A stretch of 16,653 nt of DNA from a virus (lineage: Duplodnaviria; Heunggongvirae; Uroviricota; Caudoviricetes). Both the position numbers and the translations under genes were made by a program. The stretch lies in the IMG/VR virus record IMGVR_UViG_2869947659_000004. One strand, 5' to 3'. Of the stretch, positions 6,510 to 16,653 are shown piece by piece; the first letter of the stretch is position 1, and each line of letters opens with the position of its first letter. The notes below the pieces were generated by a model. It made no database searches and was not told the DNA's origin. It saw only the letters and a list, made by a program, of their open reading frames with translations.

Positions 6510-6616
6510 GGGATTTTCTCGCTGAAAGGGGTTGTTAAGGAGTAACGGGTTCTTCGGGTTTGCTTCCGGCTGACTGAACCGCCCCGAGTTTCCTGGAGAG
6601 TGTTTTATCTGTGAAC

Positions 6617-7507
6617 TCAGGCTGCCAGATCATCGTTTCCGATGGAAGCATAATAAGCTTTTTCTGCTTCTGCCGGAGGGATGTGGCCCAGCCTTTCCAG
6701 CAATCGTCGATTATTATACCAGTCCACCCACGTGAGTGTGGCCAGTTCCACTTCTGCACGGTTTTTCCAGCTCTTACGGTGTATTACCTCCGCTTTGTAA
6801 AGACCATTGATGCTCTCCGCCATCGCGTTGTCATACGAGTCGCCTGTACTTCCTGTTGATGCCAGTAATCCGGCTTCCTTAAGCCGCTGTGTGTAGGCCA
6901 GCGATACATACTGAGAACCTTTATCACTGTGATGGACCGTGCCGGACGGTCGACGGGCCCATAACGCCTGCTCCAGAGCATCCAGCACGAATGTCGTTTC
7001 CATGGACGATGAGACCCTCCACCCCACGATGTATCCGGCAAACACATCAATAATGAACGCCACATAGACGAAGCCCTGCCATGTGCTGACGTAAGTAAAA
7101 TCAGCCACCCACAGCTGGTCAGGTCGTTCTGCCACGAACTGACGGTTTACGCGGTCGCCTGCGGCAACGGCTTTCCGGCTGATGGTCGTACGGACCTTTT
7201 TACCCCGGAGAACGCCGGCAAGTCCCATAACCGCCATGAGACGTGCCACAGTGCATCTGGCCACTCTGATACCTTCCCGTAACAACTGACGCCAGACTTT
7301 ACGCACACCGTATACCTGATGATTCCCATCGTATACGCGCAGTATCTCTTTCTTCAGCCAGTCATCGCGCTGCGCACGGGCACTGCGTTTATCAGGATGA
7401 TGTCGCTGTTGCTGACAGTGGTAATACGTTGACGGGGCAATATGTAGTTCACTGCATACCGGTCCGACCCCGTACAGCTTACGCAGCTTATCCAGCAGTG
7501 GCATCAC
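6617..7507 (-). CDS. IS3-family transposase OrfB (DDE integrase core)
   Basis: Same translation as 1..888 (+); overlaps orfA by 4 nt, consistent with an OrfAB frameshift fusion. Confidence 0.9.
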
Positions 7508-8160: not shown

Positions 8161-8659
8161 TTATGCGGCTGCTCCAGCTTTGTTTGCTTTAACTTCCACC
8201 GTATCAATAAGTACAGGGTAGGTTTCTGCACTACCTGTAATATCCGTAATGACAAACCTGTTGAGTCCATTAGCAGTATTGGCCCATTTCACCAGGTCAA
8301 ACGCCTGTCCATCCACACCATCAAGCACCGGAGTAACATTAATGCTGTTACTGCCCTTAAATTTAAATGCAAGCGTATGCCAGTCATGGTCGAATGCGCC
8401 AAACGTGCCAAGTTCTTTTTGTTGATTAACTGTATGATGGTATGCAACATTAATACTGGCTTTATCTGTCTGGACAAAGAAAGAACTCAGATGGCCTTCA
8501 CCACCCTCACCCGGCCATTCCGCTATTCGCCAGTACAAACCAAAGGCATACTTGTTTCTGGTTGTCTCAAGATTGACGTTTTCGGGGATTTTAAACCGGA
8601 CAGCAATTTCCCCGCCTTTTTCCAGTAAAAGTTTTGCCTTGTCTGCAGCAATATCACAG
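8161..8659 (-). pseudogene. nanS-p-like sialate O-acetylesterase, C-terminal segment (split by IS600)
   Basis: Frame continues exactly from 9924..11293 once IS600 and one copy of its target-site duplication are removed; the 174-aa track ORF starts inside IS600. Confidence 0.75.
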
Positions 8660-8723
8660 TGAGGTAGCCTGAGTTTAACGGACACTCCTTCCTGAAATAG
8701 AATGGCATCAGAAGGAGCTAATA

Positions 8724-9026
8724 ATGAGCAGAAAAAACCAACGTTACTCTAAAGAGTTCAAAGCCGAAGCTGTCAGAACGGTTCTTGAAAATCAACTTTC
8801 GATCAGTGAAGGCGCTTCCCGATTATCCCTTCCTGAAGGCACTTTAGGACAATGGGTTACCGCCGCCAGAAAAGGGCTCGGTACTCCTGGTTCCCGCACG
8901 GTGGCTGAACTGGAATCTGAAATTCTGCAACTGCGTAAGGCGTTAAATGAAGCTCGCCTTGAGCGAGATATATTAAAAAAAGCAACAGCGTATTTTGCAC
9001 AGGAGTCGCTGAAAAATACGCGTTAA
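8724..9026 (+). CDS. IS600 transposase OrfA
   Basis: MSRKNQRYSKEFKAEAVRTVLENQLSISEGASRLSL…; HTH plus leucine zipper typical of IS3-family OrfA. Confidence 0.9.
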   Translation: MSRKNQRYSKEFKAEAVRTVLENQLSISEGASRLSLPEGTLGQWVTAARKGLGTPGSRTVAELESEILQLRKALNEARLERDILKKATAYFAQESLKNTR

Positions 9027-9061
9027 TCGAACAATGGCGACAACAATTTCCCATTGAAGCG

Positions 9062-9880
9062 ATGTGTCAGGTATTTGGTGTATCCAGGAGCGGTTATTAC
9101 AACTGGGTACAGCATGAACCCTCAGACAGAAAACAAAGTGATGAGCGGCTAAAACTGGAGATTAAGGTGGCACATATCCGCACTCGCGAAACATATGGAA
9201 CCCGGCGGCTCCAGACGGAGCTGGCAGAGAATGGCATCATCGTTGGTCGTGACCGACTGGCACGTCTTCGTAAGGAGCTAAGGCTACGCTGTAAGCAGAA
9301 ACGTAAGTTCAGAGCGACTACGAACCCGAACCACAATCTGCCAGTTGCGCCAAATCTGCTGAACCAGACGTTCGCTCCTACAGCACCAAATCAGGTCTGG
9401 GTGGCGGACCTGACGTATGTTGCCACACAGGAGGGATGGTTGTACCTCGCTGGCATCAAAGATGTTTATACGTGCGAAATTGTCGGCTACGCCATGGGAG
9501 AGCGCATGACAAAAGAGCTGACAGGTAAAGCCCTGTTTATGGCGCTCAGGAGCCAGCGCCCACCTGCCGGGCTAATCCACCACTCTGATCGAGGTTCACA
9601 GTACTGCGCATACGATTACCGGGTCATACAGGAGCAGTCTGGTCTGAAAACATCAATGTCGCGTAAAGGTCACTGTTACGACAACGCTCCGATGGAAAGC
9701 TTCTGGGGAACGCTGAAAAATGAGAGCCTGAGCCACTATCGTTTTAATAACCGGGATGAAGCCATCTCAGTAATACGGGAATACATTGAGATTTTCTACA
9801 ATCGTCAGCGTCGTCACTCTCGTCTGGGGAATATCTCCCCGGCAGCCTTCAGGGAAAAATATCATCAGATGGCTGCTTAA
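9062..9880 (+). CDS. IS600 transposase OrfB (DDE)
   Basis: 272 aa with the IS3-family integrase core (…IHHSDRGSQY…, …CYDNAPMESFWG…). Confidence 0.9.
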   Translation: MCQVFGVSRSGYYNWVQHEPSDRKQSDERLKLEIKVAHIRTRETYGTRRLQTELAENGIIVGRDRLARLRKELRLRCKQKRKFRATTNPNHNLPVAPNLLNQTFAPTAPNQVWVADLTYVATQEGWLYLAGIKDVYTCEIVGYAMGERMTKELTGKALFMALRSQRPPAGLIHHSDRGSQYCAYDYRVIQEQSGLKTSMSRKGHCYDNAPMESFWGTLKNESLSHYRFNNRDEAISVIREYIEIFYNRQRRHSRLGNISPAAFREKYHQMAA

Positions 9881-9923
9881 AAAAAGAACAAATGGTAGTG
9901 TCCGCTATTGCCAGTACACCTCA

Positions 9924-11293
9924 CAGTACATTGACCAGGATTTCGCGCTGTTATTTTTCTCAATTCGCAGAGCTTTATTGCCGCTGTCATCAACCAGTGT
10001 GCGTCTGCCATACATACCGTCCCAGCCATAAGGTTTCAGCTGATTGTCTGTAGCTTTTTTGGCATCGTAAAAAATTACAGACTCTGAGGTGGTAACCGGC
10101 CTGTCTGGAACAACCACCCCGGCAGTACCATTAACAAACGCAGAAGACTTACCCGCGCAGCTCAGAATCGCCGTTGCCAGACGGTCGGAAATAATCCCAC
10201 GGCGAGCCCATGAACTGAAATGGCTCGCCCTGTCCTGTGACGTCCAGGTGGCTGAGCTGTCACGCCATTTCGAACCGTAATAACCGATACCCGGAATGTC
10301 CGGGTCTTCTTCCGGTTTGTTCGTCGGCACATTCACCCCGTTCTCATCGGTCATGAACGGTACGAAATGGATATTCTTTTCCGTTTTATTTTTATAGCTG
10401 CCGTACACCGTCTGGTACGTGGATTCGTTCTTCTGCTTCCAGAAATACGTCGTGTCCCCGCATATCCAGGGAACACCGCCAGCAGAGCCACCGACGCACT
10501 GGCCTGCCATATCCGCCAGGTCTGCACGGAATTTATCAACCAGCGCACCAAACTGTGCGGCATGATTTGCCGGCGTACCGCCAAAATCAAATTCCCCCTG
10601 CATCCACACCACGGCAAACAGCACATTTTTCGGGTTCTTCTCCAGTGCCGCTTTTGTTCGACCGATAAGGTCCTTATACAGCGGCTTGTCCACACCCCAG
10701 CGGGTTGAATTCTCCGAGGCACCACTCGCGTCACTGTATGTGCCATCAGCTCCGGTGGTGAACGCTGAACCACCACGACAGCACGGAACCAGCAGAATGC
10801 CCGCATTCGCCGGTATAAACGGCAGCAGTTTTTTGGCGATATGCAGCCCCTGCCCCACGGTTCCGTACTGCCCCTTTGACAGGTCCGCTTTCGGATGGTT
10901 AAGACGGCTCATGTCCTGCACATCATGCAGACAATGGTCCGCCGGAATGATGTCGTTATATTTGCATGCTGCACCGCCCGGTGTCACCGTACTGCGACGC
11001 GCCAGTTGCTTAATACGCGGGTCCGGACGGTCATATGTCCCCGGCAGCGGAAGGCCTTCACCATACGACATGCCGTTTGACTGCCCTGCCAGAACCACAA
11101 CAAAGTAATACTCCGGGTCGCTGGTGGCGCTGATTACTGCACCTTCTGCTGCAATCGCCTGCATCAGAGTATAAGGGGTTATGGCCACCGGACTACCAAA
11201 CGGCTGCCAGCCCTCTTTCAGTTTATGTGTCAGCTTTTCCGCAAGATCTGACGGCGACGCCGCCCTGACAACATCATAGTGTTTAAAAGCCAT
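9924..11293 (-). pseudogene. nanS-p-like sialate O-acetylesterase (prophage NanS-p / SASA-SGNH hydrolase), N-terminal 456 codons
   Basis: N-terminal prophage-type domain followed by the SGNH/SASA motif VVVLAGQSNGMSYGEG. Located between the tRNA cluster and the lysis cassette, as nanS-p is in Stx-type prophages. Interrupted by IS600 after codon 456. Confidence 0.75.
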
Positions 11294-11512: not shown

Positions 11513-11737
11513 TTTGCCCACAAGAAAGCCCCTCCGGAGAGGGGCTGGAGAGTGGCGCTATGTGCCATTGCATGGTGCCGGGTGCCTCCCGGTGAATTCA
11601 GTACCAGCACCTGAATCCGCGATTATCCCATATACCTACTCGCTGATTGCCCCTCCGCACAGGGGGATTCACCATGCCAGTTTCTTTTAACAAACTCCCC
11701 GCAAACCAGACAACAGTCAACCGTCTGAATTGTGAGA

Positions 11738-11782: not shown

Positions 11783-11859
11783 TGGCGCGTTGTACTGGAT
11801 TCGAACCAGTGACCGATTGCTTAGAAGGCAATTGCTCTGTCCGGCTGAGCTAACAACGC
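11783..11859 (-). tRNA. tRNA-Arg (anticodon UCU)
   Basis: Cloverleaf read by hand: acceptor GCGTTGT/ACAACGC, anticodon loop CTTCTAA, T-arm ACTGG-TTCGAAT-CCAGT, encoded CCA. Confidence 0.85.
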
Positions 11860-11872
11860 ATGATGCAGATAA

Positions 11873-11949
11873 TGGACCGCCATCGGGGACTTGAACCCCG
11901 CGCAGCCAGCTTCGAAGGCTGGCGCTCTTTCCTGATGAGCTAATGGCGG
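11873..11949 (-). tRNA. tRNA-Arg (anticodon UCG)
   Basis: Acceptor CCGCCAT/ATGGCGG, anticodon loop CTTCGAA, T-arm CGGGG-TTCAAGT-CCCCG, encoded CCA. Confidence 0.8.
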
Positions 11950-11956
11950 TATGTGA

Positions 11957-12032
11957 TGGTGGCCCTTGCTGGATTTGCACCAGCGACCTGGCGATTATGA
12001 GTCGCTCGCTCTCACCACTGAGCTAAAGGGCC
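11957..12032 (-). tRNA. tRNA with CAU anticodon (Ile2/Met type, ileZ-like)
   Basis: Acceptor GGCCCTT/AAGGGCC, anticodon loop CTCATAA, T-arm GCTGG-TGCAAAT-CCAGC, encoded CCA. First of three in the order CAU / Arg / Arg, as in the ileZ-argN-argO cluster of Stx-type phages. Confidence 0.8.
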
Positions 12033-12072
12033 GGGAGCCGCATAATAACGACGCGTAATTAATTCTTCAATA

Positions 12073-13104
12073 TCATCCGTTCTGGCTGACTAAATCCTGT
12101 ACTTCCCGAACCGTCTGCTCAAAACGTTCAGTCTCCAGCTCAACGCCAATTGCACGACGCCCGAGCGCCAGTGCCGCTTTCACTGTCGAACCCGACCCCA
12201 TGAAAAAATCTGCAATCAGGTCACCCGGACGACTGCTAGCGCTGATTATCTGCTGCAGCATTTCTGCCGGTTTTTCGCACGGATGTTTCCCGGGATAGAA
12301 CTGCACCGGTTTATGCGTCCACACATCGGTATACGGCACCTGCACCGTCACGCCAAAATACCGCCGCAGATGTTTATATTCACTCAGCAGCTCCGCATAC
12401 TGCCGGTTCAGTGAGGTATACGTATCCACCAGCTGGTGGTGGAGCTTTTCCAGTTCACCACGCCGATGCTTCTCTTCTGCCACCCGGGCAAACAGCGCCT
12501 GTAATTTCAGATAATCGCTTTCATTCGGCAACTGCCACTGACTGGCACTGAACCAGTGCGACACCATGTTTTTCTTTCCTGTGGCATCTGCAATCTGTTT
12601 TGCCGTTATCCCCAGGGCAGCTCGCGCATCACGAAAGTAAGAAATCAGCGGGGCCATCACATGCTGTTTCAGTGCACTGCCCTTCACCGCATACCCGGCA
12701 TCTTTCGGACGATACGGCCCCTGATAATGTTCCGCGAACAGAATGCGCTCTGTGGCGGGGAAATACGCCCGCAGGCTTTCCTTGTTGCATCCGTTCCAGC
12801 GTCCGGACGGCTTCGCCCAGATAATATGGTTCAGCACACTGAAGCGTTCACGCATCATGATTTCGATATCAGATGCCAGGCGATGACCACAGAACAGGTA
12901 AAGACTTCCGGCAGGTTTCAGCACCCGCCAGAACTGCGCCAGACACTGGTCCAGCCACTTCAGGTAATCATCGTCGCCCTTCCACTGGTTATCCCAGCCC
13001 TCAGGCTTCACTTTAAAGTACGGCGGGTCCGTGACTATCAGGTCAACAGAATTTTCGGGTAACGACCAGATAAATTCCAGGCAGTCGGCGGGTAATGACT
13101 CCAA
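12073..13104 (-). CDS. DNA methyltransferase, beta-class (N6-adenine or N4-cytosine; motif IV DPPY before motif I FxGSGST); 5' end abuts IS1
   Basis: …SVDLIVTDPPYF… near the N-terminus and …DFFMGSGSTV… near the C-terminus. The first 4 to 5 codons (MESLP) lie inside the IS1 terminal repeat, so the native start was probably lost. Confidence 0.85.
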   Translation of the reverse strand: MESLPADCLEFIWSLPENSVDLIVTDPPYFKVKPEGWDNQWKGDDDYLKWLDQCLAQFWRVLKPAGSLYLFCGHRLASDIEIMMRERFSVLNHIIWAKPSGRWNGCNKESLRAYFPATERILFAEHYQGPYRPKDAGYAVKGSALKQHVMAPLISYFRDARAALGITAKQIADATGKKNMVSHWFSASQWQLPNESDYLKLQALFARVAEEKHRRGELEKLHHQLVDTYTSLNRQYAELLSEYKHLRRYFGVTVQVPYTDVWTHKPVQFYPGKHPCEKPAEMLQQIISASSRPGDLIADFFMGSGSTVKAALALGRRAIGVELETERFEQTVREVQDLVSQNG

Positions 13105-13105
13105 C

Positions 13106-13501
13106 TTACTGATAGTGTTTTATGTTCAGATAATACCCGATGACCTTGTCATGCAGCTCCACCGATTTTGAGAACGACAGTGACTTCCGTCCCAGCCTTG
13201 CCAGATGTTGTCTCAGATTCAGATTATGTCGCTCAATGCGCTGAGTGTAACGCTTGCTGATAACGTGCAGCTTTCCCTTCAGGCGTGATTCATACAGCGG
13301 CCAGCCATCCGTCATCCATACCACGACCTCAAAGGCCGACAGCAGGCTCAGAAGACGCTCCAGTGTGGCCAGAGTGCGTTCACCGAAGACGTGCGCCACA
13401 ACCGTCCTCCGTATCCTGTCATACGCGTAAAACAGCCAGCGCTGACGTGATTTAGCACCGACGTAGCCCCACTGTTCGTCCATTTCAGCGCAGACAATCA
13501 C
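13106..13501 (-). CDS. insB: IS1 InsB
   Basis: [28 protein letters not shown]… is the characteristic InsB sequence. Confidence 0.95.
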
Positions 13502-13527
13502 ATCACTGCCCGGTTATATGCGCGAGG

Positions 13528-13803
13528 TTACCGACTGCGGCCTGAGTTTTTTAAGTGACGTAAAACCGTGTTGAGGCCAACGCCCATAATGCGTGCACTG
13601 GCGCGACATCCGACGCCATTCATGGCCATATCAATGATTTTCTGGTGCGTACCGGGCTGAGAGGCGGTGTAAGTGAACTGTAGTTGCCATGTTTTACGGC
13701 AATGAGAGCAGAGATAGCGCTGATGTCCGGCAGTGCTTTTGCCGTTACGCACCACGCCTTCAGTAGCGGAGCAGGAAGGACATCTGATGGAAATGGAAGC
13801 CAC
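13528..13803 (-). CDS. insA: IS1 InsA
   Basis: [43 protein letters not shown]… is the characteristic InsA sequence. Confidence 0.95.
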
Positions 13804-13858
13804 GCAAGCACCTTAAAATCACCATCATACACTAAATCAGTAAGTTGGCAGCATTACC

Positions 13859-14106
13859 CGCTCGACGAGTGGAAACCAAAACGGTTCAGTCTCCCAATAA
13901 CAAACACTACCCTGGTGAAATACGGAAAACTAGGATACATCGTTCCAAGACCACAAAAAATTCGTGGGCGTTGGCTGATAGATCGCCGAGCAGTATTTGT
14001 TGGGCCTGGTGAAACGGGAATTGCGCCGGAAATTCATACTGGCGATGATGATGCACTGAAGGAGATTTTAACTCATGTCACCGAGGCCACGAAAAAACAG
14101 CACTGA
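13859..14106 (+). pseudogene. xis: Excisionase (lambda Xis-like), start codon removed by IS1
   Basis: …PLDEWKPKRFSLPITNTTLVKYGKLGYIVPRPQKIRGRWLIDRRAV… resembles lambda Xis (…LTLQEW…VRRWVRECRIFPPPVKDGREYLF…). No start codon exists after the IS1 end, and the 3' end overlaps int as in lambda. Confidence 0.6.
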
Positions 14107-14899
14107 CGTAGCCGGTCTTTACGAAAAGTTTGATCGCAGAACTGGCAGAGTTTACTACCAGTATAAAAATCCTGTGACTGGAAAATTTCACGGACTCGGA
14201 ACAGACAAAGGTAAGGCAGAAAAAATCGCTTCCACAGCCAATCAGCGAATAGCTGCAGCAGAAGCTGAATATTTCATGCGCAAAATTGATGAAAGTCCGT
14301 CAGCAACAAAACGTCGGGGTATCAGATTAAAGGCATGGGTTGATCGATATCTGAAAATACAGGACACGCGACTGAAAAATGGAGATATTGCAGCTACAAC
14401 TCACAAAGAAAAAACTCGAATGGCTGCATACCTGGTTTCCCGTCTGGGAAACCACCCATTGAAAGAACTGGAAGTAAGAGACTTTGCATTAATACTGGAT
14501 GAGTGGCTGGATAAAGACATGGTCAGCACAGCGAGAGTAAATCGTGGATTATGGGTTGATATTTATAAAGAAGCACAGCATGCAGGGGAAGTTCCTCCTG
14601 GATGGAATCCTCCGGAGGCTACCCGTAAACCGATCCCTAAAGTAACCAGAGCCAGGCTCACCATGGAAGACTGGCAAAAAATTTACAATGCAACGCCTGA
14701 AAAACACTTTATCCGTAACGCAATGCTTCTTGCGATTGTTACTGGTCAGCGCCGTGATGACATTTGCCACATGCGTTTTTCAGATGTGTGGAACGAACAC
14801 TTGCATATCACCCAGGGAAAAACCGGAATGCGTCTGGCGTTACCGCTTACACTACGCTGTGATGCCATTGGGATAACGTTAAAAGAAGTTATTGATGGG
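14075..14899 (+). pseudogene. int: Phage integrase (tyrosine recombinase, lambda Int family), 3'-truncated by IS600
   Basis: N-terminal arm-binding and core-binding regions are present, but the ORF runs straight into the IS600 left end at 14900, so the C-terminal catalytic region including the Tyr is missing from this window. Confidence 0.85.
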
Positions 14900-15413
14900 T
14901 GAGGTAGCCTGAGTTTAACGGACACTCCTTCCTGAAATAGAATGGCATCAGAAGGAGCTAATAATGAGCAGAAAAAACCAACGTTACTCTAAAGAGTTCA
15001 AAGCCGAAGCTGTCAGAACGGTTCTTGAAAATCAACTTTCGATCAGTGAAGGCGCTTCCCGATTATCCCTTCCTGAAGGCACTTTAGGACAATGGGTTAC
15101 CGCCGCCAGAAAAGGGCTCGGTACTCCTGGTTCCCGCACGGTGGCTGAACTGGAATCTGAAATTCTGCAACTGCGTAAGGCGTTAAATGAAGCTCGCCTT
15201 GAGCGAGATATATTAAAAAAAGCAACAGCGTATTTTGCACAGGAGTCGCTGAAAAATACGCGTTAATCGAACAATGGCGACAACAATTTCCCATTGAAGC
15301 GATGTGTCAGGTATTTGGTGTATCCAGGAGCGGTTATTACAACTGGGTACAGCATGAACCCTCAGACAGAAAACAAAGTGATGAGCGGCTAAAACTGGAG
15401 ATTAAGGTGGCAC
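14900..15413 (+). mobile_element. IS600, second copy, left 514 bp only; interrupted by IS2
   Basis: Identical to 8660..9173 of the complete copy; identity stops at 15413 where the IS2 terminal repeat begins. Confidence 0.9.
14964..15266 (+). CDS. IS600 transposase OrfA (copy 2)
   Basis: Identical 100-aa translation to 8724..9026. Confidence 0.9.
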   Translation: MSRKNQRYSKEFKAEAVRTVLENQLSISEGASRLSLPEGTLGQWVTAARKGLGTPGSRTVAELESEILQLRKALNEARLERDILKKATAYFAQESLKNTR

Positions 15414-15424
15414 TGGATTTGCCC

Positions 15425-16330
15425 CTATATTTCCAGACATCTGTTATCACTTAACCCATTACAAGCCCGCTGCCGCAGATATTCCCGTGGCGAGCGATAA
15501 CCCAGCGCACTATGCGGATGCCATTCGTTATAATGTTCGAACGCCTCTGCAAGGTTCTTTGCTGCCGTTAACCCGTCTGGTTTGGGCATGATACTGATGT
15601 AGTCACGCTTTATCGTTTTCACGAAGCTCTCTGCTATTCCGTTACTCTCCGGACTCCGCACCGCCGTGTTCTTCGGTTCAAGTCCCAACATCCGGGCGAA
15701 CTGGCGTGTTTCATTAGCCCGGTAGCATGAACCATTATCCGTCAGCCACTCCACTGGAGACGACGGAAGATCGTTGCCGAAGCGGCGTTCCACCGCTCCC
15801 AGCATGACGTCCTGTACTGTTTCACTGTTGAAGCCGCCGGTAGTCACCGCCCAGTGCAGTGCCTCACGATCACAGCAGTCCAGCGCGAACGTGACACGCA
15901 GTCTCTCTCCGTTATCACAGCAGAACTCGAACCCGTCAGAGCACCATCGCTGATTGCTTTCTTTCACGGCCACTCTGCCTGTATGTGCCCGTTTCGATGG
16001 CGGTACAGCAGGTTTTCGCTCAAGCAACAGCGCATTCTGGCGCATGATCCGGTAAACACGTTTGGCATTGATCGCAGGCATACCATCAAGTTCTGCCTGT
16101 CTGCGAAGCAGCGCCCATACCCGACGATAACCATACGTGGGCAGCTCTCCGATAACATGGTGTATACGGAGAAGCACATCCGTATCATCAGTGTGACGAC
16201 TGCGGCGGCCATCCATCCAGTCATCGGTTCGTCTGAGAATGACGTGCAACTGCGCACGCGACACCCGGAGACAACGGCTGACTAAGCTTACTCCCCATCC
16301 CCGGGCAATAAGGGCGCGTGCGCTATCCAC
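15425..16330 (-). CDS. insD: IS2 transposase InsD (OrfB)
   Basis: [43 protein letters not shown]…, 301 aa. Confidence 0.95.
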
Positions 16331-16653
16331 TTTTTTGCCCGTCCATATTCAACGGCTTCTTTGAGGAGTTCATTTTCCATCGTTTTCTTGCCGAGCAGGC
16401 GCTGGAGTTCTTTAATCTGCTTCATGGCGGCAGCAAGTTCAGAGGCAGGAACAACCTGTTCTCCGGCGGCCACAGCAGTAAGACTTCCTTCCTGGTATTG
16501 CTTACGCCAGAGAAATAACTGGCTGGCTGCTACACCATGTTGCCGGGCAACGAGGGAGACCGTCATCCCCGGTTCAAAGCTCTGCTGAACAATTGCGATC
16601 TTTTCCTGTGTGGTACGCCGTCTGCGTTTCTCCGGCCCTAAGACATCAATCAT
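16288..16653 (-). CDS. insC: IS2 InsC (OrfA)
   Basis: [56 protein letters not shown]…; the start codon is at the last three bases of the window. Confidence 0.95.

Follow-up and report, generated by a model that had tools for sequence, protein, structure and literature searches.

M.EcoGII of Escherichia coli O104:H4 strain C227-11 is a non-specific adenine N6 methyltransferase that acts on DNA and RNA (Murray et al. 2018, PMC5778455). The same work describes M.EcoGI as a close relative of this enzyme, places both in a large prophage family, and names the enzyme of phage 1720a-02 as very similar. Both M.EcoGII and M.EcoGI are silent in lysogens, and constitutive expression from plasmids produced clones that were slow-growing and unstable but viable (PMC5778455). 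M.EcoGII has also been used with N-terminal fusions and remains active in that form (PMC11551740). The solitary state is normal for this family, with a presumed anti-restriction function for the phage. Among the intact relatives found in Stx2 phages and E. coli prophages, the gene has a constant position, with Q followed by a small ORF, the 352-codon methyltransferase gene and three tRNA genes.

A member of this family is present in the window (the whole 16,653-nt stretch of DNA analyzed here), where it occupies positions 12073..13104 on the minus strand as an ORF of 343 codons plus stop with a TTG start. Our analysis indicates that this ORF is very probably a silent, 5'-truncated remnant of an M.EcoGII-family gene, located in an IS-eroded Shigella boydii prophage next to potC and provided with a start codon by accident. 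RefSeq carries the 343-aa product as a protein and not as a pseudogene, under WP_242490354.1, "DNA-methyltransferase [Shigella boydii]". The assignment to the beta class, which had been made from the sequence alone, is upheld by profile matching and motif order. Pfam PF01555 (N6_N4_Mtase) matches residues 20-331 of the ORF with E=2.5e-43 and 149 bits, against a cut-off of 26.7 bits and with profile positions 1-219 of 221 covered. Motif IV (DPPY, residues 26-29, 13018..13029, minus strand) and the AdoMet-binding motif I (FMGSGST, residues 301-307, 12184..12204, minus strand) are both intact, and the arrangement of an N-terminal motif IV, a central TRD and a C-terminal motif I (FxGxG) is that of the beta class. 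The NCBIfam matches were all sub-threshold and were to adenine methyltransferase models (PRK11524, CcrM).

The native part of the gene, as defined by DNA alignment to intact genes, covers 12073..13090 (minus strand), beginning at the third base of native codon 14 and ending with the stop codon. This native DNA is 95-97% identical to methyltransferase genes from Stx2 phages and from prophages of E. coli, and the ORF is therefore not a product of chance. Over the 1018 nt, identity is 95.4% to the "DNA methylase" gene of Stx2a phage Stx2_95, 95.2% to the phage 1720a-02 gene, and 97% to prophage genes in E. coli chromosomes. Both catalytic motifs and the entire TRD have been preserved, and the 338 native codons are free of frameshifts and stops, an observation that counts against reading the gene as a dead remnant.

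A comparison of the window protein with M.EcoGII shows 311 identical residues out of 339, or about 92%, with the TRD included; this identity is approximate, as the M.EcoGII sequence was taken from the machine-read supplement of the SUPREM paper (PMC11551740), which probably contains OCR errors. As printed there, M.EcoGII begins MLNTVKISSCELINADCLEF. The two proteins differ in their C-terminal tails, the window ORF being of the 352-aa "...DLVSQNG" type and M.EcoGII of the 349-aa "...DLIV" type. The sequence-only reading had left the target specificity of the enzyme open. This now appears too cautious, given its identity of about 92% to the non-specific M.EcoGII and the 95.2% DNA identity of the 1720a-02 homologue. 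By homology, the enzyme is most probably a non-specific adenine-N6 methyltransferase without sequence specificity.

[quoted passage not shown] The earlier remark that no such partner is visible in the window proved correct, as the remaining large ORFs there are IS transposases, phage int, xis, a nanS-like gene and lysis genes. Unlike M.EcoGII, the window ORF has had its first 14 residues exchanged for five that are partly IS1-encoded, and Q and the upstream region are deleted. Its likeness to the genes of Stx2-converting phages and 1720a-02 (LC567838 BCI50293.1, KF030445) extends to 95% identity over 1018 nt and to the same downstream tRNA-Ile/Met, Arg, Arg cluster. In those phages, by contrast, a complete gene of 352 aa lies downstream of Q and is followed by stx2AB, while the window lacks stx, Q and the 5' end of the gene. 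The downstream half of the usual arrangement (tRNAs, nanS-like esterase, holin and lysozyme) is retained in the window, and the upstream half including Q has been deleted. The tRNA cluster, consisting of tRNA-Met(CAT), tRNA-Arg(TCG) and tRNA-Arg(TCT) at 11783..12032 on the minus strand, directly follows the methyltransferase gene, as it does in the intact relatives.

The 14 nt at the start of the ORF (TTGGAGTCATTACC, 13104..13091, minus strand) supply the TTG start, codons 2-4 and two bases of codon 5, and correspond to the extreme end of the right (insB-proximal) inverted repeat of IS1. That the first codons are IS1 terminal-repeat sequence had been proposed before, and it is borne out here, with the TTG and the following 11 nt forming the final 14 nt of a 768-bp IS1. 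When the DNA is aligned to intact homologues, the break falls between 13091 and 13090, which makes codon 5 a hybrid, and the string across the IS1-methyltransferase junction is AGTAAGTTGGAGTCATTACCCGCCGACTGCC. The intact homologues are 352 aa long and start MLNTVKISSCELIN-ADCLEF, while the window protein starts (M)ESLP-ADCLEF. The loss amounts to 41 nt, or 13 2/3 codons, such that the 14 residues MLNTVKISSCELIN have given way to the five residues MESLP. The sequence-only reading took a substantial N-terminal loss relative to intact homologues as the finding that would speak against its chimera. The alignment goes part of the way toward that finding: the number of residues involved is small, but the 14 that were exchanged for five are conserved. 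Across 29 homologues of 74-93% identity, M1, N3, T4, V5, S9, L12 and N14 are nearly invariant, and the family N-terminus MxNTVKISSxELIN, which is itself nearly invariant, is incomplete in the window ORF. The D of the conserved N-A-D is retained in the chimera, and a proline now stands directly before the conserved A-D.

Structural models offer some indication of the form of the missing segment. In the AF2 model of an intact member, strands are present at residues 4-7 and 10-14 (pLDDT 75-89), followed by a helix at 17-23 and then a strand at 29-34 that runs into DPPY; the model of the chimera has no strand in this region, and pLDDT is <50 for its residues 1-6. The alignment underlying these models is shallow, and with mean pLDDT values of 68 for the intact protein and 61 for the chimera they are moderately confident and indicative only. 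The pair of models is informative on the modelled form of the lost residues and not on the folding of the chimera. The lost stretch is thus modelled as a conserved beta-hairpin. In the solved beta-class homologue 9c3u, residue 3 of the chain aligns to query residue 8 (SSCELINAD versus SGIELHNRD), and this alignment at the very start of the chain suggests that the second strand is part of the conserved core. Taken together, this suggests that the N-terminal loss, while short, lies outside any dispensable tail.

The IS1 copy that provides the start codon occupies 13091..13858 (768 bp, minus strand) and contains insA (13803..13528, minus strand), the A6C frameshift motif and the insB' frame. Its two inverted repeats agree with each other at 24 of 35 positions, the AAAAAAC motif is found at IS1 nt 306, and the IS1 transposase model NF033558 matches both of its ORFs. 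At IS1 nt 343-345, the copy of S. boydii CDC 3083-94 and an IS1X2 copy of E. coli both have CAA, which in the window copy has become a premature TAA (13514..13516, minus strand) through a C to T change at nt 343. No full-length transposase can therefore be made from the window IS1, which is non-autonomous. No 9-bp target duplication was found around the element, its flanks being ACTCGTCGAGCG and CGCCGACTGCCT.

On its far side the IS1 adjoins xis' (13859..14106, plus strand), an excisionase gene truncated at its 5' end by 22 nt, which forms the other edge of a deletion and overlaps the integrase gene. This lambda-type integrase gene (14075..14902, plus strand) has lost its 3' end to an IS600-like (IS3-family) element beginning at about 14899. 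The IS600-like element is itself interrupted by an IS2 (15425-16653), and the integrase of CDC 3083-94 is still full length at 372 aa, in contrast to the 3'-cut window copy. A simple insertion of IS1, with the 5' end of the methyltransferase gene to be found across the element, is ruled out, since what follows there is xis'/int and the target site is not duplicated.

The extent of the deletion can be measured directly by comparison with related prophages. The int-xis segment of the window is 100% identical to prophages of many E. coli genomes, and in the prophage of E. coli FDAARGOS_536, which occupies the same potC site, the two window breakpoints are 16,752 bp apart with Q located in the interval. 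The order in that prophage is int, xis, exo, dicB, immunity and replication genes, Q, methyltransferase, tRNAs, iraM and the SASA esterase. The window IS1 thus marks a deletion of about 16.7 kb of the early region, reaching from approximately codon 8 of xis to codon 14 of the methyltransferase gene. The late promoters of lambdoid phages are located downstream of Q. The deletion has taken Q together with the late-promoter region, the position of the promoter being presumed from general knowledge. A lone IS1 without direct repeats that joins loci about 16.7 kb apart resembles the product of an IS1 adjacent deletion or of recombination between IS1 copies, and IS1-mediated adjacent deletions are attributed to Turlan and Chandler (1995) as cited in PMC9330008. 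An IS1-associated deletion of this kind is a textbook outcome for the IS-rich genomes of Shigella and is nothing unusual.

In the course of events that we favor, the intact gene would have been located just downstream of the Q antiterminator gene in a lambdoid prophage and would have been silent in the lysogen. About 16.7 kb was then removed, through an adjacent deletion by IS1 or through recombination of two of its copies, and the native transcription signals and the conserved N-terminal beta-hairpin went with it, leaving the gene with a TTG that has no ribosome-binding site. The chance presence of an in-frame TTG at the IS1 end leads gene callers to report a protein of 343 aa. Judged from these features, the chimera is most probably not made in meaningful amounts and most probably contributes no detectable share of the host methylome. 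The anatomy, the homology, the size of the deletion and the junction common to two strains are direct results, and the silence of the gene and its enzyme's lack of specificity are inferred.

The TTG within the IS1 terminal repeat is the sole in-frame start between the upstream stop and DPPY, with in-frame stop codons directly upstream of it, and other start codons were rejected for this stretch. The next in-frame start is a GTG at codon 32, past DPPY. Translation from this GTG or from a later codon could in principle yield a shortened protein with some non-catalytic role, and GTG or ATG codons are available in frame at positions 32, 61, 83 and 84. The product would be without DPPY (residues 26-29) and the first core strand and so could not be a methyltransferase; as the sequence hints at no other role, we consider an internal start to be most improbable.

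The signals for expression from the TTG are poor. The 25 nt preceding it form a duplex with the anti-SD sequence of -0.2 kcal/mol, compared to -3.3 kcal/mol for the native ATG; the native SD is thus also weak, and weak signals alone are no proof of silence. The only nearby promoter-like site directed at the gene is that of insA, in the left inverted repeat of IS1 (13851..13824), apart from a second, weak match inside insB. A promoter scan identified no promoter-like site spanning the IS1-gene junction. The insA promoter is repressed by InsA itself, and IS1 exerts polar effects on the genes downstream of it. A sequence scan found no intrinsic terminator between the IS1 promoter and the ORF, which means that read-through from insA is possible and counts against silence.

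IS1 is able to form hybrid promoters in which an outward -35 in its inverted repeat requires a -10 in the sequence beyond (Prentki et al. 1986, as cited in PMC8764528 and PMC9330008). The window is like these cases in that an IS1 end abuts an outward-reading gene and unlike them in that there is no -10 at the appropriate spacing. Reading from the sequence, the hexamers located 16-18 nt past the terminal TTGGAG are GCCTGG, CCTGGA and CTGGAA, and these are not -10-like. A hybrid promoter at the junction was rejected on these grounds, on the absence of a match in the scan, and because its transcript would begin past the TTG. Translational coupling to insB, whose stop codon is 1 nt before the TTG, is excluded in the window copy, since ribosomes in the InsAB' frame end at the premature TAA about 410 nt short of the TTG.

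These features bear on the proposal of the sequence-only reading that the protein may still be made as an IS1-initiated chimera. With Q and the late region deleted, no SD, no promoter at the junction and a TAA in insB', this is unlikely; meaningful expression is likewise unlikely, yet possible, to judge from the missing signals. A leaky form of such expression would involve read-through from the insA promoter and inefficient initiation at the TTG, giving a small amount of active MESLP-methyltransferase and hence m6A, at a low level and irrespective of sequence, on the S. boydii chromosome and perhaps on RNA as well. We regard this as rather unlikely. The ORF, DPPY, TRD and FMGSGST are all intact, the IS1 left-end promoter is aimed at the gene with no intrinsic terminator in between, and the family enzyme is highly active, its constitutive plasmid clones being slow-growing but viable (PMC5778455). 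The activity of M.EcoGII with N-terminal fusions (PMC11551740) and the retained D of N-A-D also indicate that some activity could remain if the chimera were made. Against this stand the lack of a Shine-Dalgarno sequence, the weakness of TTG as a start, and the exclusion of translational coupling by the premature insB' stop, together with the loss of the conserved N-terminal hairpin and the placement of a proline directly before A-D. Self-repression by InsA and the polarity of IS1 would further reduce such expression. It is very unlikely that an IS1-initiated chimera is produced at a low constitutive level, free of Q-dependent late control, and marks the S. boydii chromosome, and perhaps RNA, with sparse m6A that follows no motif. 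A literature search for Shigella methylome data on the methyltransferase gene returned nothing relevant.

The junction is shared by two S. boydii strains. The exact 343-aa protein is encoded on CP026766.1 (assembly GCA_002949475.1) of S. boydii, and an identical junction of IS1 and methyltransferase gene occurs at the potC locus of S. boydii CDC 3083-94 (CP001063) as well. Between the two strains, the ORF shows two differences in 1032 nt, both of them non-synonymous. In CDC 3083-94, a later IS2 insertion is located 17 bp inside the IS1 right end and is flanked by a 5-bp ATCAG duplication (locus ~8805-10135). This insertion lengthens the frame upstream into IS2 sequence, accounting for the 391 aa of GenBank ACD09190.1 as opposed to the 343 aa of RefSeq WP_000444972.1. 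The closest intact allele that was found, represented by the initial 814 nt of the gene on Logan contig SRR10029248, has six differences over those 814 nt (R22W, A149V and four synonymous changes). The complete gene on that contig encodes a 386-aa "methyltransferase" with an internal duplication of 34 residues in which two alleles are joined, and this form probably arose when two prophage copies were fused in the assembly.

Searches of 5,426 complete E. coli genomes, the GTDB species representatives and JGI metagenome contigs identified no other instance of this junction. The sole full-coverage match in E. coli consists of two separate pieces, with an IS1 sitting between Q and an intact gene. 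The small numbers of differences (2/1032 and 6/814 nt) and the absence of the junction elsewhere point to a lineage-specific and recent event. The open frame can then be attributed to the recency of the event, as expected under neutrality, and not to selection. With two differences between the S. boydii alleles and six in 814 nt to the intact allele, a test for selection on substitutions was rejected as having no power.

These data also bear on whether the truncated gene might have been domesticated and be under selection in S. boydii, for example in a condition-dependent epigenetic or anti-restriction role. The junction and the open frame have been kept in two strains despite divergence of the surrounding ISs, with IS2 in the IS1 end of one strain and the IS600-like element and IS2 in int of the other. 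Only 2 nt separate these strains, however, both changes are non-synonymous, and the time available for decay has been so short that retention says nothing about selection; the junction occurs in none of the complete E. coli genomes, species representatives and metagenome contigs listed above, and the remaining prophage is under IS erosion. Domestication is accordingly given very little credence.

Taken as a silent remnant, the gene is of low biological weight, being a typical case of IS-driven prophage decay in Shigella in a family already well characterized via M.EcoGII. Its main consequence concerns annotation. RefSeq lists both WP_242490354.1 and WP_000444972.1 as an ordinary "DNA-methyltransferase", and S. 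boydii methylome or REBASE-style inventories could therefore count a gene that is probably dead. Were the chimera active, its m6A would be motif-less and would be missed by motif-based SMRT analysis, such that only bulk m6A measurement would reveal it. A leaky chimera, if true, would be a natural example of an IS bringing a non-specific phage methyltransferase under vegetative expression.

Several additional features of the surrounding prophage were noted. Two IS3-family copies (1-930 and 6575-7504) are 100% identical, inverted and 5.6 kb apart around the lysis region, and both contain ALIL frameshift pseudoknots (Rfam). Two IS600-like copies (8659-8958 and 14899-15198) are in direct orientation and 6.2 kb apart around the nanS'-tRNA-methyltransferase-IS1-xis'-int' segment. 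Each pair offers a substrate for additional inversions or deletions. The window also holds an IS66, and one of the two IS600-like copies is the one cut by IS2. The nanS-p-like esterase gene (DUF1737 and SASA, 9905-11293, minus strand, 462 aa) ends beside an IS600-like element and, since its intact relatives measure about 618 aa, is truncated at its 3' end. Between this gene and the tRNA cluster is a full-length match to the Rfam sRNA STnc100 (11516-11706, minus strand, 139 bits), a position that is occupied by stx in Stx phages. The first tRNA gene of the cluster (11957-12032, minus strand) is called tRNA-Met (CAT) by ARAGORN, and RefSeq calls the E. coli prophage ortholog tRNA-Ile, presumably on account of a lysidine-modified CAT anticodon. 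A promoter-like TTGAAG-17-TATTAT sequence is located at 12042-12070 (minus strand), between the methyltransferase stop codon and this tRNA gene, and the tRNA cluster may thus be transcribed independently of the deleted late promoter.
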